This document shows positions 3,191 to 55,265 of a DNA stretch of 64,000 nt, one piece after another. The stretch spans positions 2,221,904-2,285,903 of the forward strand of contig CAWEHW010000004.1 in assembly GCA_963809045.1 (NCBI GenBank), read 5' to 3'. The position numbers and the translations under genes were made by a program. Positions within the stretch are counted from its first letter, which is position 1, and every line of letters begins with the position of its first letter. The DNA comes from an uncultured Chloroflexia bacterium (GTDB taxonomy: Bacteria > Chloroflexota > Limnocylindria > Limnocylindrales > CSP1-4). Under the pieces are notes generated by a model, which worked only from the letters and a program-made list of their open reading frames with translations, ran no database searches and had not been told where the DNA came from.

Positions 3191-6100
3191 ATGACCGCTC
3201 GGCAGGCACGGGCCGCTCGCAGCGATCCGACGCCGGAGGCAAACGTGCGCGTGCTCCAGGACCGGATCGACGAGCTCGAGGCCGAGACCAAGGAGCGCGC
3301 GGCCGAGCTCGCGATCATCAACAGCGTTCAGCAGGGACTCGCCTCGAGGCTCGAGACCCAGGCGATGTACGACCTCGTCGGCGACAAGATCCGCGAGATC
3401 TTCGACGCCCAGGTCGTTGATATCGGCATCCTGGACCCAGCCGATGGCCTGATCCATTTTCCGTACACGATCGAACGTGGCGTGCGCTATCCGGACGAAC
3501 CGCTCGAGATCATCGGCTTCCGGAAGCACGTCCTCGAGACCGGCCAACCGCTGCTGATCGCCGGAAACACCAAGGAGGCCGCAGCGGCATACGGAAACCC
3601 GATCGTGCTCACGGGCGAGATGCCGCTCGCCAGCCTGTTCGTTCCCTTGATGACCGGCGAGGTTGGAAGCGGCGTCATTTCGCTCCAGAACATCGACCGG
3701 GCGGATGCCTTCAGCGACGACGACGTCCACCTCCTTTCGACGCTTGCCTCCAGCCTGAGCGTCGCCCTCGAGAACGTCCGCCTGTTCGAGGAGACGAAGC
3801 GGCTGCTCACGGAGACCGAGCAGCGGAGCGCCGAGCTGGCGGTCATCAACGAGATCGGCACGGCCCTCGCCCAGCAGCTCGACTTCCAGGCAATCCTTGC
3901 GCTGGTTGGCGATCGGGCCGCGGAAGCGCTGGGCGCCCGCGGGCTATCGATCTGCCTCATGGATCCCAGGACCTCGGATCTGACGTTCATGTACTGGGTG
4001 GACGAGGGTGTCCGGAACCGCGAAAAGGAAGGTTTCGTCCTCCGCGATCCCCTGTCGGCGGAGATCCTCAGCTCTGGTCTCCCGGTGCGGATCGGGTCGG
4101 CCGAGGAGGCCGCCGCTCGGGGAACCCCCTTTGCGATCGGCGGCACCGCGTCCTACCTAGGCGTGCCCATTCCCGCCGGCGATCGGGCCATCGGCGTCTT
4201 CGCCCTCGGGACGCGCGATCAGGACGCCTACACCGAAGCCGACGAGCGACTGCTGATGACCCTCGCCGCGAGCACCGGTGTCGCGCTCGAGAACGCGAGG
4301 CTGTTCGACGAGACGAAGCGACTGCTCGCAGAGACCAACGAGCGCGCCGCCGAGCTCGCGATCATCAACAGCATCCAGCAGGGCCTCGCGTCAGAGCTCG
4401 ACATGCAGGCGATGTACGACTTGGTCGGCGACAAGATCGCGGAGATCTTCGATGCGCAGGTGGTCGACATCGCGCTCTACGACCTCGCGGCGGGCACCGC
4501 CCGATATCCGTACACCCTCGAACGCGGGATCCGCCATCCAGACGTGCCGGGCCCCATCGGCGCGATGGGACGGGCCGTCCTGGAGGCACGCCAGTCATTC
4601 CTGATCACGGACTTCGATGCCTGGACCCGCGACCACGGTGTGGAGCTCGTCGCCGACGTCGGAGAGAAGCCGCGATCTGGCCTGTTTGCTCCGCTCAGTG
4701 TGGCCGGAGAGGTCCGGGGTCACATTTCGCTCCAGAACGTCGACCATACGGACGCCTTCAACGAGTCGGACCTGCGCCTCCTGACGACACTGGCATCGAG
4801 CCTGAGTGTCGCGCTCGAGAACGCCCGCCTGGTGGACGAAACGCGGCAGCGAGCCGCCGAGCTGGCGATCGTCAACGACGTCGGGCAGGCGGTCGCGTCG
4901 CAGCTGGACCTCGATCGCCTGATCCAGCTGACGGGCGAGCAGCTGCGAACCACGTTCCGTGCCGACATCGTCTACGTCGCGTTGCTCAACCAGACGATCG
5001 GGATGATCGACTTCCCGTACCGGATCGAACGCGGCAAGCCGGCGCCGCGGGCGCCGCTGCCACTCGGCGAAGGTCTGACCTCGCAGATCCTGCTGTCGCG
5101 GGAGCCGTTGCTCCTCAACCGCGCGGACCAGTTCGAGGTCCTGGAGAAACAGGGCGTTGGCACGACGGTCCGCTCGTATCTTGGCGTGCCGATTGTCATC
5201 GGGGACGAGGCGATCGGCGTGGTCAGCGTCCAGAGCATCGACGAGGCCGGGCGGTTCGGCGACGCGGAGACCCGGCTCCTGCTCACGATCGCAGCGAACG
5301 TAGCCGCCGCAATCCGCAACGCGCAGCTCTACCGCGAGGCGCAGGGCCGGGCGCGCGAGATGGCCGCCCTTGCCGAGATGGGTCGTGAGATCTCCGCAAC
5401 GCTGGATCTCGAGGGACTGCTCCAACGGATAGCGGAACGCGCCCAGACCCTGCTCGAAGCCGGCACCAGCGCGGTCTTCCTGCCGGACCCCGACGGCACG
5501 TTCCGCGCCATCGCGGCGATCGGAGAGATCGCCGACATCATCAAATCCGATCGGATCGCTCTCGGCGAGGGAATCATCGGCACGCTCGCCGTCGAGGGTC
5601 GCGCCGAGGTCGTCAACGACGCGACGCACGACCCACGGAGCGTATCGATCGCCGGGTCCGATGACGACGACACCGAGGAACGGCTGATGGTCGCGCCGTT
5701 GGTCGGACGCCAGGGGGTCATCGGGATGATGGCGGTGTGGCGCTCGGCCACCCGCCCGCCGTTCACGCCCGGCGAGCTCGACTTCCTCGTCGGCTTGTCC
5801 CAGCAGGCCGCGATCGCCATCGACAACGCTCGCCTCTTCGCGGAAGCGAACGAGTCGCGCCTGGCGGCCGACGCGGCGAACCAGGCGAAAAGCGCATTCC
5901 TCGCGGCGATGAGCCACGAGATCAGGACCCCGATGAACGCGATCATCGGGATGAGCGGCCTGTTGATCGACACGCCAATGAACGAGGAGCAGCGCGACTA
6001 CGCGGAGACGATCCGGACGTCCGGCGACGCACTCCTGACGATCATCAACGACATCCTCGATTTCTCGAAGATCGAAGCCGGACGGGTGGACCTGCTGAAC

Positions 6101-7504
6101 GAACCCTTCGAGCTCGCGGCTTGTGTCGAGAGCGCCCTCGACCTGATGGCGCCGTCGGTCGCCAAGAGACGTCTCGAGCTCGCCTACTCGGTCGACAGCG
6201 AGCTGCCGGATGGGATCGTGGGCGACATCGGGCGCCTGCGCCAGATCCTGCTGAACCTCCTCTCGAACGCCGTCAAGTTCACCGAGCGCGGCGAGATCGT
6301 GGTGACCGTCGCGGCGCGTCGGCTGACGGAGCCGAAGCGTGGCCCGAGCCGATGGGCGATCTCGGTCACCGTGCGCGACACCGGCATCGGCATCCCACCC
6401 GACCGGATGGACCGGCTCTTCCAGTCCTTCAGCCAGGCCGACGCCTCGATTTCGCGGCGGTTTGGCGGCACCGGCCTGGGCCTGGCGATCAGCCGTCGCC
6501 TCGCGGAGGCGATGGACGGCGCGCTCACCGCCGAGAGCGGTGGCGTCCCGGGCGAGGGTGCAACATTCCACCTCGTCATCGAGGCCGACGAAGCCCCTGC
6601 CGCGACGCTGCCGTCCCGAATGCGTGCTCCGGCACTGGCCCAGGACCTGATGGCCGGACGATTGGCGCTCGTCGTGGACGACAACGCCACGAACCGACGA
6701 ATCCTGGCCGCCCAACTCGAGCGTTGGGGCTTACGGGTGCGAGCCACGGCATCGGCCACGGAAGCGTTGGGCTGGACTCAGGCTGATGAGCCGTTCGATC
6801 TTGCCTTGCTGGACATGGTCATGCCCGACATGGATGGCCTCGCGCTCGCGAACGCCATCCGTGCCGTCCGCCCGACCCGAGCGCCGCGGATCGTGCTCAT
6901 TTCGTCCTTCGGCTTCCACGACCAGAAGCAGCCCGGTATCGATGCGTTCCTCACCAAGCCGGTCAAGCCGTCGGCGCTGTACGACACCCTCGCGACTGTC
7001 CTGGCCGGCGATGGAGCGACGGCAAGCCGCCGGGAGCGGGCGCCGAGCGGCGACGAGATTGATCCTGACCTCGGCGCTCGCTACCCGCTGCGGATCCTGC
7101 TCGCCGAGGACAACCCGGTGAACCAGAAGCTCGCGCTGCGACTCCTGACGCGCATGGGCTACGCGGCCGATGTAGCCAACAACGGTCTCGAGGCCATCGC
7201 CGCCGCCGAATCGGGAACGTACGACCTGGTCCTGATGGACGTCCAGATGCCGGAGATGGACGGCCTCGAAGCCACCCGACAGATTCGCAGCCACCGGAAG
7301 GCGCGCCCAGTCCGAATCGTCGCCATGACGGCCAACGCGCTGGCAGAGGATCGGGAGGCCTGCTTCGCGGCCGGCATGGACGATTACCTCAGCAAGCCAA
7401 TTCGGGTGAACGAGCTGATGGCCGCGCTCGTTCGATCGGCGGAGAGCCTGGCGAATGGCGTCGCACCGACATCGCGTCGAAAGCGATTGAACGCCCATGC
7501 CTGA
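3191..7504 (+). CDS. multi-GAF hybrid sensor histidine kinase with two receiver domains
   Basis: ATG 3191 lies behind a GGAGGG RBS (the track ORF opens at GTG 3164). Five GAF-like modules, each introduced by a ...AELA(I/V)(I/V)N... linker. H-box [15 protein letters not shown] boxes [28 protein letters not shown]. Two REC domains ([22 protein letters not shown]; [22 protein letters not shown]). Confidence 0.9.
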
Positions 7505-47109: not shown

Positions 47110-48660
47110 TCACGTCACGTCGAGCCACCCGTAGGACCGCTCGACGCCCTTGTGCCAGCGAGCGATCCCCGCCAGCCGCGTCGCCGGATCCCTCGCGGGC
47201 TCCCAGCGGCGATCCGCGCGGTCCATCGCCCGCAGCTCGTCGAGTCCCGACCAGAACCCGACGGCGAGTCCCGCGGCATAGGCAGCTCCGAGCGCCGTCG
47301 TCTCGGCGATCGGTGGCGCGACCACGGTCCGATCGAGGATGTCCGCCTGGAACTGCATGAGCAGGTCGTTGCCGATCATCCCGCCGTCCACGCGCAGCTC
47401 CCCGGGGAGTGGCATCCCGAGATCGGCCGCCATGGCCTCGCACAGGTCGTAGACCTGGTAGGCCGTGCTCTCGAGCGCGGCGCGCGCAATGTGGGCACGC
47501 GTCGCGTAGGCCGTGAGCCCCGCGATCACGCCCCTGGCCTCGCTGCGCCAGTGCGGGGCGAAGAGCCCGGAGAATGCCGGCACGAAGACGACGTCGCCGC
47601 TGTCGGGCACGGAACGGGCGAGCGCCTCGACCTCGCCGGCATCGGCAATGATCCCGAGGTTGTCTCGCAGCCAGCCGATGAGAGACCCGGTGACCGCCAC
47701 CGAGCCTTCGAGGGCATACGTAGCCGGTCCATCGCCGAGCTTCGCCGCCACGGTCGTGATCAATCCATGGCTCGATGGCACGGGTCGCTCGCCGGTGTGC
47801 ATCAGGAGGAACGCGCCGGTCCCGTAGGTGCACTTGAGCTGGCCAGGTTCGAAGCAGGCCTGCCCGAACAAGGCCGCATGCTGGTCCCCGAGGTCGCCGC
47901 TGATCGGGACGCCGGCCAGCTCCCCCACCCCGGTGCCGTAACGCTCGGACGAGGGCCGGATCGCCGGGAGCATCGCCCGCGGGATGTCGATGACGTCGAG
48001 GAGCTCGGCGGCCCAATCCAGACGTTCGAGGTCCATCAACATCGTCCGCGAGGCATTGGTCACGTCGGTCACGTGGCGACCGCCACTAGGCCCGCCCGTC
48101 AGGTGCCAGATCAGCCAGGTATCGATCGTCCCGAAGAGCAGGTCCCCGGCTTCGGCCGCGGCGCGCCGCTCGCGTACCGCCTCGCGAGGCCCGTCGTCGA
48201 GCATCCAGGCGAGCTTGAGCGCCGAGGAGTAGGTCGAGATCGGCAGACCGGTCGTCTCACGAAACCGGTCGATCCCCGACTCGGCTGCGAGCCTCGCGCA
48301 CGCGTCGGCCGTCCGGGTGTCCTGCCAGACGATCGCGTTGCCGATCGGGTGGCCGGTCGTGCGCGACCAGACCACGGTGGTCTCGCGCTGGTTGCTGATC
48401 CCGACGGCGGCGAGGGCCCGCGCTCCCACGCCGGCCTCACGCAGCGCACCGCGGACGCACCCCTGGACGTTACGGAGGATCTCGTCGGCATCGTGCTCGA
48501 CCCACCCGGGACGTGGCGTGATCTGCCGATGGGCAAGCTGATGTCTGGCGACTGGCTGACCGGAGCGATCGAACAGGATGCACCGGCTGCTCGTGGTCCC
48601 CTGGTCGATCGCCGCGACGAGGGAGCCATCGGCCCGGGCGGACAGGTTCGAGGCGGTCAC
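47110..48660 (-). CDS. glpK: glycerol kinase
   Basis: [78 protein letters not shown] motifs. 516 aa. Confidence 0.9.
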
Positions 48661-48673
48661 GGGCGCACCGCCG

Positions 48674-49807
48674 CTATGGCTTCGCGATGGTGTCGATCCA
48701 GAAACGCTTGATGAGCTCGTTCAGGGCGGTGTAGATCAGCGGTGCGCTGGCGATCAGGACGGCCCGCCCGAACGCGACCGTGTCGGCAAACGGCCAGGTG
48801 GTCATCTCGTGAACCGTCTTGCGAAGCGGGACCAGCGTGTTGGTCCGGGCGTTCAGCGCGGGGATCTCGGGGGCTGTCAGCGAACTCCGCCGGACCTCGT
48901 CATAGACCTCGGAAATCCGGGCGTTGAGGTCGGCCAGGACCGCGTCCTTCGCGTCGGACATCTGGCGGTGGACGCCTCGCAGCGGCAGGAGCAGCGCGAG
49001 CAGGCTGGCAACCGCGGCAAGCAGGAGCACGGTGTAGCTGATCCAGTGACTCGGCTGGCCGAGTCCGAGCAGGAAAATCACGATGATCCCGGCGGGCGCA
49101 AGGGCGCCGGCGAGCGCGATGTTGCCGAGCGGCAGGAGGTTGGTCGTGTCGAAGACGTCCACGTCCAGTGGTTCGCGGCAGAGCGCGCCCAGGGCGCGCC
49201 CATGCCGCACGGTCAGGAAGATGAGGCTGAGGCCCGCCCAGCCAAGGACCGTGTACCCGGCAAGGACCGCGAGCGCGGCAAGGGGACTCGAGGGCAGGAA
49301 CAGCTCGCCGCGCGTTGCGCTCGGCACGGGCAGATCCACGCCCAGACCAGCAAAGAGCGTCGTGACGATGAGCGCCGACGCAGCCAGCAGGACAAGGTTG
49401 GTGCGCACGTCGACCGGTTGGAGCCGATCGATGTACCCGCGCACGACCTTCGGATCGACCTTCATGACCCGCTCGATCGACGGGATCGCCCCCTGGACCG
49501 TTCGATCGACCACGCGGGTGATCAGCAGCATGTAGGCAACGACCGCAACCACCGTCCAGCGGGGCCCGGAAAAGGACGGCGGCAACATCTCGAGCGTCGC
49601 GCTGTCGGCCAGGTCCTCCGCCAGCTGCCCCGCCAGCACCAGGCCCACCGCAAGGACCACGACGAACGTCGCAGGAAACTCGAGATCGAACCGACGGTCG
49701 CGATCCCGGGCGGTCGCAGCGCGGGCGCGCCCGGGAGCGGCGGACGCCAGCGCCGGACCAGTCTTCCGCGTTGCGCTCTTCACGGGCCCTCCTGGGACGG
49801 CCCGCAT
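48674..49807 (-). CDS. polytopic membrane protein, hypothetical
   Basis: 377-aa ORF with about 6 hydrophobic helices and a C-terminal amphipathic region. Start uncertain. Confidence 0.5.
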
Positions 49808-49866
49808 TGTATGCCTCGTGTGAAGCGCTATTCTCGGCGCACCGTTCAGCCGGATTCGGGAGCTGC

Positions 49867-50790
49867 GTGACGATCCGCTCGCTCGACGTCCCCGACCTCG
49901 ACACGACCGACATCTCCGGGACGTTCAAGCGTCGCGTCCGTGAGGTCAGCCCCGGGCTGCTCCCGGAGGCGAACCGGCTGATCGAACGATTGCCACCGGA
50001 GCGCTGGATGCTCGAGTGGCACCTCCCGTGGTGGCTGGGGCATGCCCTCGGGCTCGATCGCGCGCTCGCGCGCGACATCGTGCTCAGCAACCTGTTCGGT
50101 CTCGGCTCGATCCGGATCCAGGACGACCTGGCGGATGGCGAGATCGCACGGCGCAAGACCGCCAAGGCGACGGCCCTCGCGACGACCCTGTACGAGCTCG
50201 CGCTCGAACCATACCGGGACCGGTTTCCTGCGGGATCGGCGTTCTGGGGGCACGTCGACGCGTGCATGATCGAGTGGCGAGCCGCCCAGGGTTCGGAGGG
50301 CCGGCTGGCGGCCCGGGGCGCGCCGCTCAAGATCTCGGCGTTCGGCGTCTGCCTGTTGGCCGGGCGCGACGACGTCTACCCAACCCTCGACCGGCTGCTT
50401 GACGATGCGCTCGAGGCGCTCGTCCTCTACGACCACATCGCCGATTGGCAGGCGGACCTCGATGCGGGGCGATGGAATGCCTTCGTCGCCGACCTGTCAG
50501 ACGGCCCGCAGGTCCCCGAGGAACGCACCCGGCATCGACGCGCGGCCCTCGTCGCGCTGATGACCACCGACACGATCGCGGTGCACATCGGTCGCGTGCA
50601 GGCCGGTCTCCTTCGCGCCGCCGATCTCGGCGACGCGTTGGTCGTGCCGGTCCCGCCGCTCGTGGCGCACCTTCGGTCGTTCGCGAGGCAGGTAGGCGAG
50701 GACGGCCGGGCGATCCAGGCGCACTACCGCGACCTTGGCGATCGCGCCGCGAGACTGCTGCTCGAGAGCCCGAACGATGAACGATCATAG
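49867..50790 (+). CDS. class-1 isoprenoid-biosynthesis-enzyme-like protein (polyprenyl/phytoene-synthase fold; ComQ-like candidate)
   Basis: GTG 49867 lies 4 nt after GGGAG. First Asp-rich motif IRIQDDLADGE (DDxxD). Second acidic motif LVLYDHIADWQADLDAGRWNAF. All-helical. 307 aa. Confidence 0.55.
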   Translation: MTIRSLDVPDLDTTDISGTFKRRVREVSPGLLPEANRLIERLPPERWMLEWHLPWWLGHALGLDRALARDIVLSNLFGLGSIRIQDDLADGEIARRKTAKATALATTLYELALEPYRDRFPAGSAFWGHVDACMIEWRAAQGSEGRLAARGAPLKISAFGVCLLAGRDDVYPTLDRLLDDALEALVLYDHIADWQADLDAGRWNAFVADLSDGPQVPEERTRHRRAALVALMTTDTIAVHIGRVQAGLLRAADLGDALVVPVPPLVAHLRSFARQVGEDGRAIQAHYRDLGDRAARLLLESPNDERS

Positions 50791-50840
50791 GAACCGGCAG
50801 GGACGGCGCTCGACGAGAGCCCACAGGGAGGAGAGGCCCG

Positions 50841-51119
50841 ATGGACAACAAGCACGACCCGCGCGAAGACACCCACGAGTACGGGTTCATGGAGCGGGAG
50901 CTGGCCTTCAAGCTGCTCGCGTCACACGCCCTGGTCGATGCTGAGTTCTTCGACTGGCTCCGAAAGGACCCGGAGGCAGCGGCGGCCCAGCTCCACATCC
51001 GCCTGACGGCGAAGGACGTGGAGTACCTCCGGGACGTGGTGGAGTGGGAGGGCATCACCACCGTGGCCGACGACATCCGCGAGCGCCTCCACCTGGACCA
51101 GGTGACCAACTCCTGGTAG
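50841..51119 (+). CDS. 92-aa peptide ending ...LDQVTNSW (candidate modified-peptide precursor)
   Basis: ATG 50841 follows a strong GGGAGGAGAGG RBS, 50 nt after the isoprenoid-enzyme-like gene. Acidic helical N-terminal region. The C-terminal residue is Trp. Confidence 0.55.
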   Translation: MDNKHDPREDTHEYGFMERELAFKLLASHALVDAEFFDWLRKDPEAAAAQLHIRLTAKDVEYLRDVVEWEGITTVADDIRERLHLDQVTNSW

Positions 51120-51191
51120 CGGCGACCCGCCCTGTCCGCTCGCGGGCCTCGACGAACCCGCCACGTGGCATCCATAGCGGCTCCATAACCT

Positions 51192-51234
51192 GATCCCAGG
51201 ATTCAAGGCATCGGATCCACGCAGGATCCCAAGG
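51192..51234. promoter_or_regulatory. direct repeats CAGGAT(T/C)C..AAGG / GATCC boxes upstream of the membrane-protein/two-component operon
   Basis: Read directly. CAGGATTCAAGG (51197-51208) and CAGGATCCCAAGG (51222-51234). GATCC-like cores at 51192, 51200, 51214 and 51225. RBS GAAGGAG and ATG 51254 follow. Confidence 0.3.
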
Positions 51235-51253
51235 TCTTGAAGGAGCACCACAC

Positions 51254-51688
51254 ATGTCTCGCACCATCGCCGCCATCCTGCTCGTCGCCCTGTTGGCGAT
51301 CGGGGGCGGGTTCATCGCCGTCACTGCCTACCAGGCGGGTCTCGGCACCGCCGTGACGACCGCCGTCGCCGAAGGCGGAGCAACGGTCGTGGCGCCCATC
51401 GCGCCGTACGGCATCGGGTACGGCTACGGCTGGCACGGCGGCGGCTTCGGGTTCTTCGGGTTCCTCGGCACGCTGCTGTTCATCTTCATCGTGTTCGGGC
51501 TGATCCGCGCCATCTTCTGGCGCGGCGGCCCGGGTCGGGGTCCGTGGGGCCACGATCACGGCGGCCGCGGGCGAACGTTCTGGGACAGCCGCTTTGGCGA
51601 GAGCTTCGATGACTGGCACCGACGCGCACACAACCCGGATTCATCCAACGAGCCGCCCGCATCGAATACCACTTCGAAGCCGGCTTGA
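51254..51688 (+). CDS. Gly/aromatic-rich small membrane protein
   Basis: Two TM helices (IAAILLVALLAIGGGFIAV; FFGFLGTLLFIFIVFGLI). YGIGYGYGWHGGGFGFFGF stretch. Cytoplasmic tail GRGPWGHDHGGRGRTFW. Confidence 0.6.
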   Translation: MSRTIAAILLVALLAIGGGFIAVTAYQAGLGTAVTTAVAEGGATVVAPIAPYGIGYGYGWHGGGFGFFGFLGTLLFIFIVFGLIRAIFWRGGPGRGPWGHDHGGRGRTFWDSRFGESFDDWHRRAHNPDSSNEPPASNTTSKPA

Positions 51689-51773
51689 CGGGGGGCCCTC
51701 CGCCGCTTCTTGCACCCTCGGACCCTTGGGTCCGGGGGTGCATGCGTTCTCCGCGGAGCACGCGCGAACTACG

Positions 51774-52481
51774 ATGCCTTCGATGAAGACCGTTCTCGTC
51801 GTCGATGACGAGCCGAAGATCACCCAGCTCGCTCGCGACTACCTCGAGCACGCCGGGTTCGAGGTCCTTGTCGCCGCCGACGGTCCCAGTGCGCTCAGCC
51901 TGGTCCGCCAGCGCCACCCGGACCTTGTCGTCCTCGATCTCGGGCTCCCCGGACTCGACGGCCTCGACGTCACCCGCGAGCTGCGACGCGATTCGACCAT
52001 TCCGATCGTGATGCTGACCGCCCGGGACGATGAGCTCGACAAGTTGCTCGGCCTGGAGCTCGGCGCCGACGACTACCTCACCAAGCCGTTCAGCCCGCGC
52101 GAGCTGGTGGCGCGCGTGCGGGCCGTGCTGCGCCGGAGCGAGACGGCCGCCGCGCCGAGCGACCTGATCCGGGCCGGCGACGTAGTCCTCGACGTGCCGC
52201 GGATGCGCACGGAGGTCGCCGGTCGCCCGATCGAGCTGACCGCCACGGAATTCGGGCTGCTGCGGACGCTCGCGGCGAGTCCCGGTCGGATCTTCACGCG
52301 ATCCCAGCTCCTCGACGAGATCCGTGGGGTCGCGTTCGAGTCGTACGAGCGGGCCATCGATTCCCACATCAAGAACCTGCGTCGCAAGCTGGAACCCGAC
52401 CCGCGCGAGCCTCGCTATGTGCTGACGGTGTACGGCGTCGGGTATCGCTTCGCTGACGACCGCGGGACGGCCAAGGCGTGA
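51774..52481 (+). CDS. OmpR/PhoB-family response regulator
   Basis: VLVVDDEPKI..., VVLDLGLPGLDG, DDYLTKPF. Winged-helix C-terminus (ELTATEFGLLRTLA...VYGVGYRF). Start ATG 51774 (or 51783). Confidence 0.9.
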   Translation: MPSMKTVLVVDDEPKITQLARDYLEHAGFEVLVAADGPSALSLVRQRHPDLVVLDLGLPGLDGLDVTRELRRDSTIPIVMLTARDDELDKLLGLELGADDYLTKPFSPRELVARVRAVLRRSETAAAPSDLIRAGDVVLDVPRMRTEVAGRPIELTATEFGLLRTLAASPGRIFTRSQLLDEIRGVAFESYERAIDSHIKNLRRKLEPDPREPRYVLTVYGVGYRFADDRGTAKA

Positions 52482-53641
52482 CCGGCGCGCCGAGCGAGCC
52501 CGGGAACGGCGAGCAGGAAGGCCGCGGTCCGTGGGGCCGGCGCGGCGATCACGGAGGCTTTGGGCCGTGGGCCAGTCGCGATCCCGAGGTCCGCCGGATG
52601 ATGCGCCGGCGGGCCCGCTACATGCGCCACGGACCGGGTGGGCCGTGGCGGTTCCGGCAGGGTTTCGGTTGCATCTTCGCGCTCCTCTTCCTCGTCGTCG
52701 TCGGTTCGATCCTGACGGCGACAGCCAGCGTGCTCTCGAGCCTCGAGCCGCTGCCCGTGCTGATCACGGCCCTGGTCATCGTCGGCATCCTGGCCACGCT
52801 CGCCCGTGGCACGGCCGGAGCGGCCCGCGACCTGGACACGATGCTCGCCGCCACGCAGCGGGTCGAGGAAGGCGACTACGCGGTGCGGGTCGGTCGGACG
52901 CGATCGGACCTCCGACCCATCCAGGAGCTCGCTCGGGGCTTCGACACGATGGCCGCGCGGCTCGAAACCAACGAGGAGCAACGCCGGACCTTGCTGGCCG
53001 ACGTCAGCCACGAGCTGCGAACGCCCCTTGCGGTCATCACCGGCAACCTCGAGGCCGTGATCGACGGGATCTACCCACCCGATCCCGAGCACCTGACGCC
53101 CATCCTCGACGAGACCCGGGTCATGGCCCGGCTGATCGACGACCTGCGAACGATCGCCTTGTCCGAGGCCGGCACCTTGACCCTCCATCCCGAGCCGACC
53201 GATCCCGACGTCCTCATCGGCGAGGTGCGGCAGGCGTTCGCGACGGTCGCCGCGTCCGCCGGTATCGCGCTCACCGCCGAGACCCGCGCTGACCTGCCGA
53301 TCCTCGACATCGATCCGGTCCGCATCCGGGAGGTCGTCGGCAACCTGGTCGCCAATGCCATTCGCCACACGCCGCGCGGCGGAACGGTCACGATCAGCGG
53401 TGTCGCGAGCCCGTCCACCGTGACGCTGACGGTCCGCGACACCGGCCCCGGGATCGATCCCGAGCTCCTCCCGCATGTCTTCGATCGGTTCGTCAAAGGC
53501 GCCGGATCGCGCGGCTCGGGGCTCGGGCTCGCCATCGCACGCGGGCTGGTGGAGGCGCACGGCGGCGCAATTTCCGTCGAGTCGCCCGCCGGTGGCGGAA
53601 CAACGTTCATGGTGGAGTTGCCGCTGGGCCCCGAACGCTAG
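52478..53641 (+). CDS. sensor histidine kinase (2 TM, HAMP, HisKA, HATPase_c)
   Basis: GTG overlaps the RR stop. H-box LLADVSHELRTPLAVI. N box VVGNLVANAIRHTP. G boxes RDTGPGI and GSGLGLAIA. The N-terminal tail carries GRGPWGRRGDHGGFGPW. Confidence 0.9.
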   Translation: MTGAPSEPGNGEQEGRGPWGRRGDHGGFGPWASRDPEVRRMMRRRARYMRHGPGGPWRFRQGFGCIFALLFLVVVGSILTATASVLSSLEPLPVLITALVIVGILATLARGTAGAARDLDTMLAATQRVEEGDYAVRVGRTRSDLRPIQELARGFDTMAARLETNEEQRRTLLADVSHELRTPLAVITGNLEAVIDGIYPPDPEHLTPILDETRVMARLIDDLRTIALSEAGTLTLHPEPTDPDVLIGEVRQAFATVAASAGIALTAETRADLPILDIDPVRIREVVGNLVANAIRHTPRGGTVTISGVASPSTVTLTVRDTGPGIDPELLPHVFDRFVKGAGSRGSGLGLAIARGLVEAHGGAISVESPAGGGTTFMVELPLGPER

Positions 53642-53752: not shown

Positions 53753-54805
53753 ATGACCCGCTCGATCAGCCGCGCCGGCGCCGCGTTTGGCGCCGCCCTC
53801 TTCGTGATTGCCCTGACCGCGGCCCCGGCGCTCGCCTGCGGTGGCCTGATCGGCCCGAACGGGGCGGTCAACCTGATCCGCACGACCACCCTCGCCGGGT
53901 ACCACGATGGCGAGGAGCACTACATCACGGCGTTCCAGTTCGCGGGCGGTGGCGGCTCGTTCGGTTCGTTGACGCCCCTGCCGGGGATCCCGTCCAAGGT
54001 GGAGAAGGGTGGCGACTGGACGCTCCAGCGCCTGATCCTCGAGACCGAGCCGCAGCGCGACGCGTTCTTCGCCGCTCCGGAGGCGGCGGCTGGGTCCGCC
54101 GAGGAGCTGATGAAGGTCCGGATCGATGCCCTCGACGTCACCGTGCTGCGGGGTGGCCCGGCCGAGGTCGGCAAGTGGGCCTCCGATCACGGTTTCCGGC
54201 TCCCACCCGACGCTCCCGAGGTGCTCGATTTCTACGCGGCGCGGTCCCCGATCTTCCTCGCGGCGGTCTTCGACGCCGACGCGGCCGCCGAACGTGGCCA
54301 GGCAGTCGGCGACGGCACGCCCGTCCACATCACGATCCCGACGGACAACCCGTGGGTTCCGCTCCGAATCCTGGCGCTCGGCAAGGGCGAGGCGGAGCGC
54401 GTCGAAGCCGACGTCTACCTCCTGACCGACCGGCGGCCCGCCCTGCTGCCAAACCCGGACGGCGCGAACGGCCTCGAGCTTGGTCACAGCGCATCGGCCA
54501 GCGAATTGCTCCTGACCGACCTGCGTTCGGACCGCGGCATGGAGTGGGTTCCCGAATCGGCCTGGCTGAGCAAGGTCCGGATCGATGCGGCGGCGCCGCA
54601 GCTGGGCTTCGATCTCGCGATCGATGCGTCGGGGGCGCGGCAGCCGTCCCGGGTGATGGCCGGCCTGGACCTCCCGGGCGCCGTCGTCCCGGCCGATCGC
54701 TCGGCCGATCTCGTCCGGATCATCGTGGCCGTGACGTTCACGGTTGGCGGCATCGGCGGGATCCTCTACCTGCTGGCCCGTCGGCCACCGCTGACCGCGG
54801 CCTGA
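53753..54805 (+). CDS. DUF2330-like secreted/membrane-anchored protein
   Basis: Signal peptide ending ALACGG. ...EEHYITAFQFAGGG.... C-terminal TM anchor (IIVAVTFTVGGIGGILYLLA). Confidence 0.75.
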   Translation: MTRSISRAGAAFGAALFVIALTAAPALACGGLIGPNGAVNLIRTTTLAGYHDGEEHYITAFQFAGGGGSFGSLTPLPGIPSKVEKGGDWTLQRLILETEPQRDAFFAAPEAAAGSAEELMKVRIDALDVTVLRGGPAEVGKWASDHGFRLPPDAPEVLDFYAARSPIFLAAVFDADAAAERGQAVGDGTPVHITIPTDNPWVPLRILALGKGEAERVEADVYLLTDRRPALLPNPDGANGLELGHSASASELLLTDLRSDRGMEWVPESAWLSKVRIDAAAPQLGFDLAIDASGARQPSRVMAGLDLPGAVVPADRSADLVRIIVAVTFTVGGIGGILYLLARRPPLTAA

Positions 54806-54818
54806 GAGGCGCAACGAG

Positions 54819-55265
54819 ATGACCGTGCAGCTGAAGCGACATCGCCGGCCGGGGCGCCTCGCCCTGGCCGGTGGCCTCGCCCTGGCGCTCGGGATGGCCG
54901 GTATCGCAGCAGCGTGGGCGAGTGGGCCGGGTGGCCCGAGGACCGTCGAGATCCCGATCCGCTACTCGCACTTCGAGCGAACCGTCTTGACCGTCCGGGC
55001 CGGGGAGCCGATCACGTTCGTCCTGACCAACGGCGACCCGATCGACCACGAATGGATCGTCGGCGACACGGGCATCCATGAGCGGCACCGCACCGGCACC
55101 GAACCCGTCCACGGGGCACGACCCACTGAGGTGACCGTCAAGGCCGGCACGACGGCGACGACGACGGTCACGTTCACCAGGCCCGGGACCTTCCTGTACA
55201 TCTGCCATCTGCCCGGCCATGAGGCCTACGGCATGGTCGGCACGGTCCGGGTGACGGGCGGCTGA
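54819..55265 (+). CDS. cupredoxin (plastocyanin/azurin-like blue-copper) protein
   Basis: N-terminal anchor/signal. Type-1 Cu ligand pattern (His in PIDHEW) ... YICHLPGHEAYGM (Cys-x2-His-x4-Met). Confidence 0.8.
   Translation: MTVQLKRHRRPGRLALAGGLALALGMAGIAAAWASGPGGPRTVEIPIRYSHFERTVLTVRAGEPITFVLTNGDPIDHEWIVGDTGIHERHRTGTEPVHGARPTEVTVKAGTTATTTVTFTRPGTFLYICHLPGHEAYGMVGTVRVTGG

Follow-up and report, generated by a model that had tools for sequence, protein, structure and literature searches.

A predicted PalQ-type prenyltransferase, a small NHLP-clan protein ending in tryptophan and a seven-helix membrane protein as a candidate lipidation module in Chloroflexota

The window analyzed here, a 64,000-nucleotide stretch of DNA from an uncultured Chloroflexia bacterium, carries three neighboring genes that probably form a module for adding a lipid to the terminal tryptophan of a small protein, with chemistry and role read by analogy with PalQ. 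Judging from sequence comparison, the enzyme of the locus very probably attaches a prenyl group to the last Trp of the small protein encoded next to it. The first-pass annotation of this DNA had proposed an isoprenoid-synthase-fold enzyme that prenylates the C-terminal Trp of an NHLP-like peptide outside the Firmicutes, and that proposal now finds support in homology to PalQ, a trans-IPPS-like fold, and the co-occurrence of enzyme and peptide homologue in 41 of 42 related loci. The likeness to ComQ/ComX drawn at the same time fares less evenly: the pairing of an enzyme with a Trp-ended peptide stands, but the kinship to ComQ does not, the closest system being PalQ/PalX. On this homology, the system is a variant of the PalQ/PalX kind and not of the ComQ family.

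Organization of the locus

The features of the locus are collected in Table 1. A called gene already on record (P0001) gives the enzyme product at 100% identity, and the enzyme stop codon is separated from the ATG of the peptide gene by 50 nt. Promoter and terminator scanning of positions 48400 to 51800 returned nothing exceeding shuffle expectation, and no match to the sigma-70 consensus was found in the 59 bp that separate memU from the enzyme gene. We infer shared regulation of these two genes from their divergent geometry alone. Much of this layout had been described before, namely the 92-aa open reading frame (ORF) with its strong ribosome-binding site and Trp end, and the membrane protein, response regulator, and histidine kinase that follow on the same strand; the coordinates bear this out. 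The earlier gene list did, however, omit the divergent memU gene, a conserved third partner.

Table 1. Coordinates of the features discussed, as positions of the window
Feature	Position	Strand	Remarks
memU, 377-aa membrane protein	48674..49807	-	Divergent from enzyme gene; third conserved module member
Intergenic region memU/enzyme, 59 bp	49808..49866	.	Divergent; presumed site of both promoters, from geometry
PalQ-like trans-IDS-like prenyltransferase (predicted), 307 aa	49867..50790	+	GTG start; stop TAG 50788-50790
First aspartate-rich motif IQDDLAD, residues 84-90	50116..50136	+	Putative Mg2+ and prenyl diphosphate binding
Modified second acidic motif YDHIADWQADLDAGRWN, residues 188-204	50428..50478	+	From enzyme alignment
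Shine-Dalgarno-like sequence GGGAGGAGAGG	50826..50836	+	4 nt 5' of peptide-gene ATG; read from sequence
NHLP-clan (Os1348-like) small protein, 92 aa, presumed prenyl acceptor	50841..51119	+	ATG at 50841
C-terminal tail LHLDQVTNSW	51087..51116	+	Trp92 codon 51114-51116, proposed modification site
Gly-rich membrane protein, 144 aa	51254-51688	+	Downstream of peptide gene
OmpR-type regulator (Response_reg + Trans_reg_C)	51774-52481	+	Domain matches
Kinase, HisKA/HATPase_c	52478-53641	+	Domain matches; HAMP match sub-threshold

Enzyme motifs, fold, and homology

The AlphaFold2 model of the enzyme is all-helical, with 14 helices and a mean pLDDT of 94.9, and both acidic motifs of the first-pass description were located in the sequence. 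Foldseek matched the model to geranylgeranyl diphosphate (GGPP) and octaprenyl diphosphate synthases (TM 0.6-0.68), to the indole prenyltransferase Ord1, and to MoeN5; as modeled, the fold is of the trans-prenyl-diphosphate-synthase (trans-IPPS) type. In an alignment of 75 sequences, D86, D90, D189, D193, D197, R202, and N204 are invariant, and D87, H190, and W194 are each at least 90% conserved. The second motif reads DHxxDW (D-x3-DW-x2-D) and not DDxxD. The enzyme belongs to a family of 1116 cluster representatives at E<=1e-3 (about 1,100 clusters when grouped at 50% identity), most of them from Chloroflexota.

Searching with polyprenyl_synt and ComQ-type models, as the first-pass annotation had suggested, left the enzyme unmatched: no Pfam or NCBIfam family was hit at E<=1, including polyprenyl_synt (PF00348), ComQ, and other isoprenoid families. 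PADLOC likewise gave no match, and comparison with PDB sequences, using either the single protein or a profile, returned only noise. Kinship emerged instead with PalQ of Paenibacillus alvei, which was described together with PalX by Miyata, Ito & Fujinami 2023 (PMC10853753). The PalQ family was fetched using the OCR-garbled supplementary alignment of that paper as bait only. Family-to-family comparison by hhalign gave 99.65% (E 3.8e-25, 271 columns, 24% identity), and BLASTP against P. alvei PalQ gave E 5e-21 at 25% identity. By these measures, the enzyme is a clear distant homologue of PalQ.

The alignment places IQDDLAD on PalQ D89/D90/D93 (D86 with D89, D90 with D93), while D189, D193, W194, D197, and N204 match PalQ D200, D204, W205, D208, and N215 column by column. 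Two positions differ, as PalQ Q197 is replaced by Val186 and PalQ D201 by His190. The Gln that immediately precedes the second motif has been proposed as a key determinant of how PalQ, Ord1, and ComQ-like enzymes recognize Trp (PMC13290415). At this position every Chloroflexota-type member carries Val or Ala, save locus L031, which carries Gln.

Chain-elongating prenyl diphosphate synthases lead the structural matches, among them heteromers that contain small subunits (3aqb, 9kp1), and some relatives of PalQ are named "terpene synthase" or "polyprenyl synthetase" in UniRef. Both observations would suit an ordinary small-molecule enzyme that makes polyprenyl diphosphates or terpenes, with the peptide as its regulatory or small subunit or as an unrelated gene. 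We consider this very improbable, as the enzyme matches neither PF00348 nor any other isoprenoid family, has DHxxDW in place of the DDxxD required for IPP condensation, and is homologous to PalQ, a proven peptide prenyltransferase. It would also leave the conserved Trp at the end of the NHLP-clan protein without a role, and the small subunits of heteromeric prenyl diphosphate synthases are not known to be NHLP-like.

The small protein and its terminal tryptophan

An NHLP-like region had been noted in the small ORF before, and profile searches now place its product in the NHLP clan. The peptide matches NF038399 (Os1348 family, NHLP clan) at E 3.7e-9 and 36.6 bits, under the curated cutoff of 40 bits, and its residues 26-85 match residues 13-71 of the Os1348 crystal-structure sequence 6lk7 (E 0.0016). 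The peptide of locus L002 scores 31.5 bits, whereas those of L012, L013, L016, L021, L027, L031, and L034 pass at 46-67 bits. We therefore regard the window peptide as a divergent relative of the NF038399 family, because it falls below the cutoff while relatives from other loci pass it.

The first-pass annotation had also asked whether homologues of the peptide accompany the enzyme across genomes and whether the C-terminal Trp is conserved. For this we used a leader-only HMM, from which the last 15 residues had been removed before building. It found 48 ORFs (window included), all directly 3' of the enzyme gene and on the same strand, and by this HMM a peptide homologue follows the enzyme in all but one of the 42 related loci. 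Trp is the final residue in 35 of the 48 peptides and lies within the last five residues in 46; the corresponding shares among control ORFs of the same DNA (n = 7868) are 2.3% and 10%. The remaining 13 peptides extend past their last Trp, by 1-4 residues in 11 cases and by 6 and 16 in the other two. Among the peptides of 12 clade members, V88, S91, and W92 are invariant. The peptide is 55-80% identical in loci where enzyme identity is 39-56%, and on such identities it is the most conserved of the module's three genes.

With DMAPP, GPP, or FPP as donor and Mg or Mn present, PalQ attaches the prenyl group to the indole of the C-terminal Trp of PalX, an NHLP-type precursor, at C3; that Trp must come last, as extension past it abolishes activity (PMC10853753). 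PalQ would thus reject the 13 extended peptides. Because Val186 and His190 stand in place of PalQ Q197 and D201, the regiochemistry or the acceptor atom could differ here. The enzyme might accordingly modify the peptide by a chemistry other than that of PalQ, such as reverse prenylation, attack from a different position of the indole, transfer of a prenyl group that is longer or cyclized, or attack by the C-terminal carboxylate or by another residue. Trp position shifts the regiochemistry of PalQ itself (PMC13290415), and L031 adds a class-II-cyclase-like protein, both of which would fit such a departure. We nevertheless judge it unlikely. Trp is the sole conserved residue across peptide tails that are otherwise divergent, and it is the target of all characterized trans-IDS-like prenyltransferases (PMC13290415). 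StheQ Q212A, moreover, retains 94% activity (bioRxiv 10.64898/2026.08.29.745113), so the Gln is dispensable in some enzymes of this kind. Prenylation of the terminal Trp by PalQ-like chemistry remains our preferred reading.

The downstream two-component system

Kinase and regulator genes (51774-53641) lie directly downstream of the peptide gene on the same strand, and such an arrangement has precedents in ComQXPA and in the PalQ-PalX-PalP cluster with its histidine kinase (PMC10853753). They could be taken as the sensor of a quorum-sensing system of the ComQXPA type, with a ComQ-family enzyme and a secreted ComX-like pheromone. The two-component system, however, adjoins the module in just 2 of 42 related loci, the close relatives L004 and L014, where the regulator is 92-94% identical and the enzyme 50-53%. 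This difference points to synteny of close relatives and not to co-evolution, and we rejected the two-component system as the sensor; on its distribution it is outside the conserved module. The doubt that the first-pass annotation had voiced about a kinase/regulator sensing link was therefore well placed, as was its assignment of the regulator to the OmpR type.

Several other observations make a ComQXPA-type system hardly credible for this locus. Wide conservation is limited to enzyme, peptide, and memU; the regulator is OmpR-type and the kinase HisKA-type, in place of a NarL/ComA-type regulator and a ComP-type kinase; the enzyme lacks a polyprenyl_synt or ComQ match even at the permissive threshold used above; and the peptide is highly conserved and not polymorphic. 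A module of enzyme, Trp-ended small protein, and memU is the reading that we carry forward.

memU, the seven-helix partner

The third gene, memU, encodes a protein with seven predicted transmembrane (TM) helices (AF2 pLDDT 86). Its predicted topology is N-in/C-out; the loops are short on the outer side and longer on the inner side, TM6 carries a long extension, and TM7 is split. A memU homologue adjoins the enzyme gene in 40 of 43 loci, upstream and divergent in close relatives and downstream and convergent in Anaerolineae and Caldilineae. The trio of enzyme, peptide, and memU is thus kept although memU switches side and orientation between clades. When loci were reached starting from memU, all three had the enzyme and W-ending peptides.

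In sequence, memU gave no Pfam, NCBIfam, or PDB signal. A match to 7tm_7 (E 0.062, 1 of 59 members) and matches to SLATT_6 (about 0.1) were dismissed as noise, as was a PADLOC match to LeoBC at 0.0069. Relatedness to the membrane domain of PalP was rejected (BLASTP E 0.22, hhalign 0.08%), and no motif or family supports memU as an ICMT-like carboxyl methyltransferase or as a protease. A neighborhood cluster of "249-aa" proteins (26 loci) was discarded as a fourth gene, since it is antisense to memU; neighborhood clustering was contaminated by shadow ORFs of high-GC DNA.

The best Foldseek matches of the memU model in the PDB are the insect odorant and gustatory receptors AgamOR28, Gr43a, BmGr9, and Orco (probability 0.75-0.98). 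Bacterial homologues of these receptors (Or/Gr) are known as 7TMICs, for which no function or ligand has been reported (Himmel, Moi & Benton 2023, bioRxiv 10.1101/2023.08.30.555482). As modeled, memU would fit the 7TMICs in its seven TM helices, N-in/C-out topology, loop lengths, TM6 extension, and split TM7. TM-scores against the Or/Gr structures are, however, just 0.27-0.36, with rmsd >10 A and E 0.015-0.5, and the sequence signal is no better than noise. It is conceivable, if a long shot, that memU is a bacterial 7TMIC-type channel whose cognate lipidic ligand or regulator is the small protein in its Trp-prenylated form, whole or as a fragment, and that memU replaces the receptor kinases ComP and PalP. 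If true, this would for the first time pair a prokaryotic member of the insect-chemoreceptor superfamily with a ligand and give such a member a functional context.

Comparison with characterized systems

The closest parallel is PalQ/PalX. The two enzymes are homologous, are both about 310 aa long and without a Pfam model, and carry DDxxD and D-x3-DW-x2-D...N at matching positions. In both systems the enzyme gene precedes a small precursor gene on one strand, and the precursor is a helical domain of the NHLP clan followed by a short tail that ends in a conserved C-terminal Trp. Loci of the Anaerolineae type also carry a convergent membrane protein after the peptide, at the place of PalP. There are also differences. 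Enzyme identity is low, with Val and His at the two positions named above, and the window precursor is Os1348-like (NF038399), whereas PalX belongs to subfamily TIGR03793; BLASTP of the window peptide against PalX returned nothing, their kinship being visible only through NHLP-clan profiles. PalP is a histidine kinase, whereas memU is an unrelated seven-TM protein without a kinase domain. Finally, PalQ comes from Bacillota and the window from Chloroflexota.

ComQ/ComX of Bacillus subtilis and StheQ/StheX of Sphaerobacter thermophilus likewise pair an all-helical IPPS-superfamily enzyme with a following small ORF that has Trp at or near its C terminus. StheQ/StheX is a ComQ-family system within Chloroflexota, and ComQ and StheQ bind Mg2+ at DDxxD (bioRxiv 10.64898/2026.08.29.745113). 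As proposed for the window peptide, StheX is ordered over its body (residues 1-59) and ends in a flexible tail. ComQ and StheQ, the latter compared by description, differ in having a pseudo-SARM NDxxD with Gln one helical turn earlier, where the window enzyme has V..DHxxDW. The modified Trp is internal or penultimate in ComX and StheX, the proposed one in the window peptide is terminal, and ComX is hypervariable, whereas the window peptide is the best conserved of its trio. Sphaerobacter was not among the results of a genome scan with the enzyme-family motifs.

Os1348 of Pseudomonas sp. Os17 (PDB 6lk7), the founder of NF038399, shares its small-protein fold family with the window peptide. It has a six-helix domain, its last six residues are disordered, and it is thought to be post-translationally modified; tryptophan goes unmentioned in the text of the paper (PMC7726476). 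The Os1348 gene is clustered with those for a GNAT, an HEXXH peptidase, and a SagB-type dehydrogenase and, unlike the window peptide gene, with no prenyltransferase. Distant members of the enzyme family occur in typical RiPP clusters; L031, for example, encodes a PqqD-M50 protease and radical SAM enzymes together with a protein resembling squalene-hopene cyclase.

Proposed mechanism

We propose that the 307-aa PalQ-type peptide prenyltransferase would recognize the 92-aa protein by its folded, helical NHLP-like domain, with the flexible tail LHLDQVTNSW entering the active site. DDxxD would bind Mg2+ and a prenyl diphosphate (C5-C15) and ionize the latter, and the resulting allylic cation would be captured by the indole of C-terminal Trp92. 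Given chemistry like that of PalQ, ComQ, and StheQ, attack at C3 would be followed by closure to a tricyclic pyrroloindoline. The lipidated product would then work together with the co-inherited memU in export, processing, or sensing. Because conservation within the trio is highest for the peptide, and its fold spans nearly the full length, the peptide may be an uncleaved, lipid-anchored small protein and not a hypervariable secreted pheromone.

Implications

Four isoprenoid-synthase-like Trp-prenyltransferases of peptides are reported as characterized, namely ComQ, PalQ, the P domain of ChrPC, and StheQ (the last in a 2026 preprint). Beyond these, the locus defines a large branch, the roughly 1,100 clusters of the enzyme family, that lacks the Gln proposed to recognize Trp and uses a different NHLP-clan carrier, and that is linked, in 40 of 43 loci, to a kinase-less seven-TM protein and not to a receptor kinase. 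If confirmed, the branch would offer new biocatalysts for C-terminal lipidation of peptides and a test of Trp recognition in the absence of the Gln. It would also provide a first handle on the roles of prenylated peptides in Chloroflexota, a phylum whose signaling is almost uncharted, and possibly a function for memU-like membrane proteins.

Gene organization of the locus

The first-pass annotation described a 307-aa enzyme ORF, a 50-nt gap and a 92-aa ORF ending in Trp, and both the coordinates and the C-terminus of the small protein bear this out. The 307-aa product is a called gene already on record (P0001, 100% identity). The membrane protein, response regulator and kinase that had been placed downstream on the same strand are also present. 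The listed genes were therefore all found, but the list lacked memU, the membrane-protein gene divergent from the enzyme gene.

Features of the locus in window coordinates
Feature	Position	Strand	Description
FGGY-family carbohydrate kinase	47110-48660	-	glycerol-kinase-like, 516 aa; directly beyond memU
memU	48674-49807	-	membrane protein, 377 aa; upstream of enzyme, divergent, 59 bp apart
Enzyme ORF	49867-50790	+	GTG start, 307 aa, TAG stop at 50788-50790
GGGAGGAGAGG	50826-50836	+	within the 50-nt spacer from enzyme stop to small-protein ATG
Small-protein ORF	50841-51119	+	ATG start, 92 aa, C-terminus ...LHLDQVTNSW
Gly-rich membrane protein	51254-51688	+	144 aa; downstream of small protein
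OmpR-type response regulator		+	downstream; Response_reg and Trans_reg_C
Kinase		+	downstream; HisKA/HATPase_c, HAMP match only sub-threshold
DUF2330 protein	53753-54805		downstream of kinase
Cupredoxin/plastocyanin-like protein	54819-55265		after DUF2330 protein

The unit of Gly-rich membrane protein, OmpR-type regulator and HisKA kinase (window 51254-53641) recurs in two related loci, L004 (9344-11773) and L014 (890-3363). As partner of the module (the enzyme, small-protein and memU genes), the two-component system was rejected: regulator and kinase adjoin the module only in these two loci, and the regulator is 92-94% identical between them and the window, versus about 50% for the enzyme. 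The doubt already voiced about a sensing link was well placed. This adjacency is synteny among close relatives with no functional link, and the two-component system is a very conserved, housekeeping-like neighbor. The FGGY kinase belongs to ordinary metabolism and is not kept with the module. The DUF2330 and cupredoxin-like genes occupy 53753-55265, and a multicopper-oxidase-like gene lies near the module in another locus, L047.

The enzyme is a homologue of PalQ

The window enzyme had no match in Pfam, NCBIfam or PADLOC even at E<=1, and the PDB sequences searched gave none. A word-indexed search recovered 166 relatives, all "hypothetical" and nearly all from Chloroflexota metagenomes; when 1.84 billion cluster representatives were searched with a profile, 1116 matched at E<=1e-3, 202 of them at E<=1e-30. 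AlphaFold2 predicts an all-helical structure with high confidence (pLDDT 94.9), whose Foldseek matches in the PDB are trans-prenyl diphosphate synthases (TM 0.6-0.68); the same list includes Ord1, an all-helical indole prenyltransferase, and MoeN5. At the level of the model, the isoprenoid-synthase fold proposed from sequence is therefore confirmed. The acidic motifs proposed with it, DDxxD and D-x3-D-x3-D, fall among the residues invariant in a 75-sequence alignment (W47, E50, W51, W56, G78, L79, R83, D86, D90, Y116, W127, P153, D189, D193, D197, R202 and N204).

PalQ of Paenibacillus alvei, an "orphan" within the isoprenoid-synthase superfamily, prenylates an NHLP-type precursor on its C-terminal Trp (at indole C3), using DMAPP, GPP or FPP with Mg2+ or Mn2+, and its activity is abolished by any residue added past that Trp (PMC10853753). 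The OCR-damaged PalQ sequence from the supplement of that paper served only as bait; the true family retrieved comprises 21 Paenibacillus proteins, which lack a Pfam domain as well. Profile-profile comparison of the two families gave a probability of 99.65% (E 3.8e-25, 271 columns), and pairwise BLASTP gave 25% identity (E 5e-21). The catalytic motifs correspond position by position: window D86/D87/D90 with PalQ D89/D90/D93, D189 with D200, D193 with D204, W194 with W205, D197 with D208, and N204 with N215. Judged by these alignments, the window enzyme is shown to be a PalQ homologue. Of the proposed ComQ/ComX-like pair, the enzyme and its Trp-ending peptide stand, but the assignment to ComQ does not, given the absence of family matches and of a ComQ signature.

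Two differences from PalQ are systematic. PalQ D201 is replaced by His190, and Q197, the Gln immediately preceding the second motif, by Val186; among Chloroflexota-type members, only that of L031, a Ca. Promineifilaceae locus, has neither Val nor Ala at this position. For PalQ, Ord1 and ComQ-like enzymes, this Gln has been proposed as the center of the hydrogen bonding that recognizes Trp (PMC13290415). The equivalent StheQ mutant, Q212A, kept 94% of its activity (bioRxiv 10.64898/2026.08.29.745113), so not every such enzyme needs the Gln.

A conserved small protein ending in Trp follows the enzyme

A scan guided by motifs and covering one genome per species yielded 41 loci, almost all from Chloroflexota (Limnocylindrales, Anaerolineae and Caldilineales); the exceptions by label are one Polarisedimenticolia MAG and one Clostridiales MAG. 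Because ORF picking by eye was to be avoided, a leader-only HMM (last 15 residues cut) was run against every stop-to-stop ORF in the window and in 42 related loci (L001, L002-L042). It found 48 ORFs, including that of the window, all directly downstream on the enzyme strand and in every locus but L038, the Clostridiales locus. Peptide and enzyme thus co-occur, a check that the first-pass annotation had called for, and the Trp is conserved: it is terminal in 35 of the 48 and among the last five residues in 46, whereas 2.3% of 7868 control ORFs drawn from the same stretches end in Trp. Tails include ...VTNSW, ...SLSFW, ...PGVLW, ...FGRGW, ...AVHWG and ...AAWGAE, and in many of the 48 this Trp is the protein's only one. 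Two or three precursor copies occur in L012, L022, L031, L035 and L046, and tandem copies differ in tail (...FGRGW/...PGFLW in L012; ...VVNPSW/...PTQASW in L046).

The suspected NHLP-like character of the small protein was upheld by NCBIfam NF038399 ("Os1348 family NHLP clan protein"; E 3.7e-9, 36.6 bits, narrowly missing the 40-bit cutoff) and by 6lk7, the Os1348 crystal-structure sequence (E 0.0016, residues 26-85 against 13-71). Os1348 of Pseudomonas sp. Os17 is dimeric with six helices and six disordered final residues, and is thought to be a modified precursor (PMC7726476). The window protein would likewise be a folded helical domain to about residue 85 with a short flexible tail ending in Trp. 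The Os1348 cluster holds a GNAT, a HEXXH peptidase and a SagB-type dehydrogenase, whereas the window peptide adjoins a PalQ-like enzyme; PalX, the PalQ precursor, belongs to the sister family TIGR03793.

Within the window clade neither of the other two genes is as well conserved as that of the small protein (55-80% identity, versus 39-56% for the enzyme and 49-66% for memU), in which V88, S91 and W92 are invariant. RiPP precursors and pheromones do not usually behave in this way, and the pattern is the opposite of the pherotype diversification of ComX; it suggests that selection acts on the whole folded protein.

memU is a conserved third gene

In 40 of 43 loci a memU homologue adjoins the enzyme, and starting from memU instead led to three loci, each with the enzyme and peptides ending in Trp. 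The gene lies upstream and divergent in the window clade but downstream and convergent after the peptide in Anaerolineae and Caldilineae, where it occupies the place of the PalP kinase in Paenibacillus. A relationship to PalP was rejected, the two being unrelated by BLASTP and hhalign, and searches of Pfam and NCBIfam assigned no family. In L011 (5942-11276), one of three loci where memU is not adjacent, the enzyme-peptide pair sits between two class-I Glu/Gln-tRNA-synthetase genes.

The memU model (pLDDT 86) and charge distribution (mean K+R by loop 7.0, 0.8, 6.4, 0.6, 3.3, 0.2, 8.2 and 1.5) indicate a seven-TM protein that has its N-terminus inside and its C-terminus outside. Outer loops are short, TM6 has a long cytoplasmic extension and TM7 is split. 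Together these features are the stereotyped criteria for 7TMICs, a seven-TM superfamily reported from bacteria (bioRxiv 10.1101/2023.08.30.555482). Insect odorant and gustatory receptors are the best Foldseek matches, with probabilities reaching 0.98, but TM-scores are only 0.27-0.36 with E>=0.015, so the likeness is only a lead. We consider it quite improbable that memU serves as a receptor or channel of 7TMIC type for a prenylated peptide.

Distant members lie in RiPP clusters

L031 (4664-12335; JBHIWP010000029.1) holds a distant enzyme homologue (6108-6812), the sole member keeping the PalQ-type Gln. The RiPP-like cluster around it also encodes three NHLP-like precursors (tails ...VSWP, ...VSWSE and ...STTW), a PqqD+Peptidase_M50 fusion, two radical SAM enzymes (one rSAM-SPASM, one B12-rSAM) and a squalene-hopene-cyclase-like protein, and it lacks memU. 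By analogy with ChrPC, this may be a prenylate-then-cyclize pathway. In L038 (3058-7555; WRNN01000048.1), a homologue with 27% identity precedes radical SAM and B12-radical SAM genes; the leader HMM found no NHLP-like peptide there, the 103-aa ORF downstream (4256-4567) is of another type, and memU is absent. The presence of relatives in such elaborate clusters supports the view that the family as a whole modifies peptides.

Proposed mechanism and relation to known systems

The data establish PalQ homology, the fold, a conserved metal-binding motif and an obligate neighborhood with a W-terminated NHLP-clan protein and memU. In the mechanism we propose, the enzyme would dock the helical domain of the peptide and Trp92 would enter the active site. 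Mg2+ at the DDxxD motif would ionize a prenyl diphosphate (C5-C15), and the indole would capture the allylic cation, by analogy through C3 attack and pyrroloindoline closure, although with the Gln missing the regiochemistry may differ. The leader may be cleaved off, and memU may serve to export, process, anchor or sense the product.

Isoprenoid-synthase-like enzymes known to prenylate Trp in ribosomal peptides include ComQ, PalQ (2023; PMC10853753) and the P domain of ChrPC, and a pair from a Chloroflexota species, StheQ/StheX, appeared as a preprint in August 2026 (bioRxiv 10.64898/2026.08.29.745113). Set against these, the window locus is nothing categorically new; it represents a large, distinct and uncharacterized branch, with 24-25% identity to PalQ and no ComQ signature, another carrier subfamily, no Trp-recognizing Gln, and a new conserved 7-TM partner in place of the receptor kinase.
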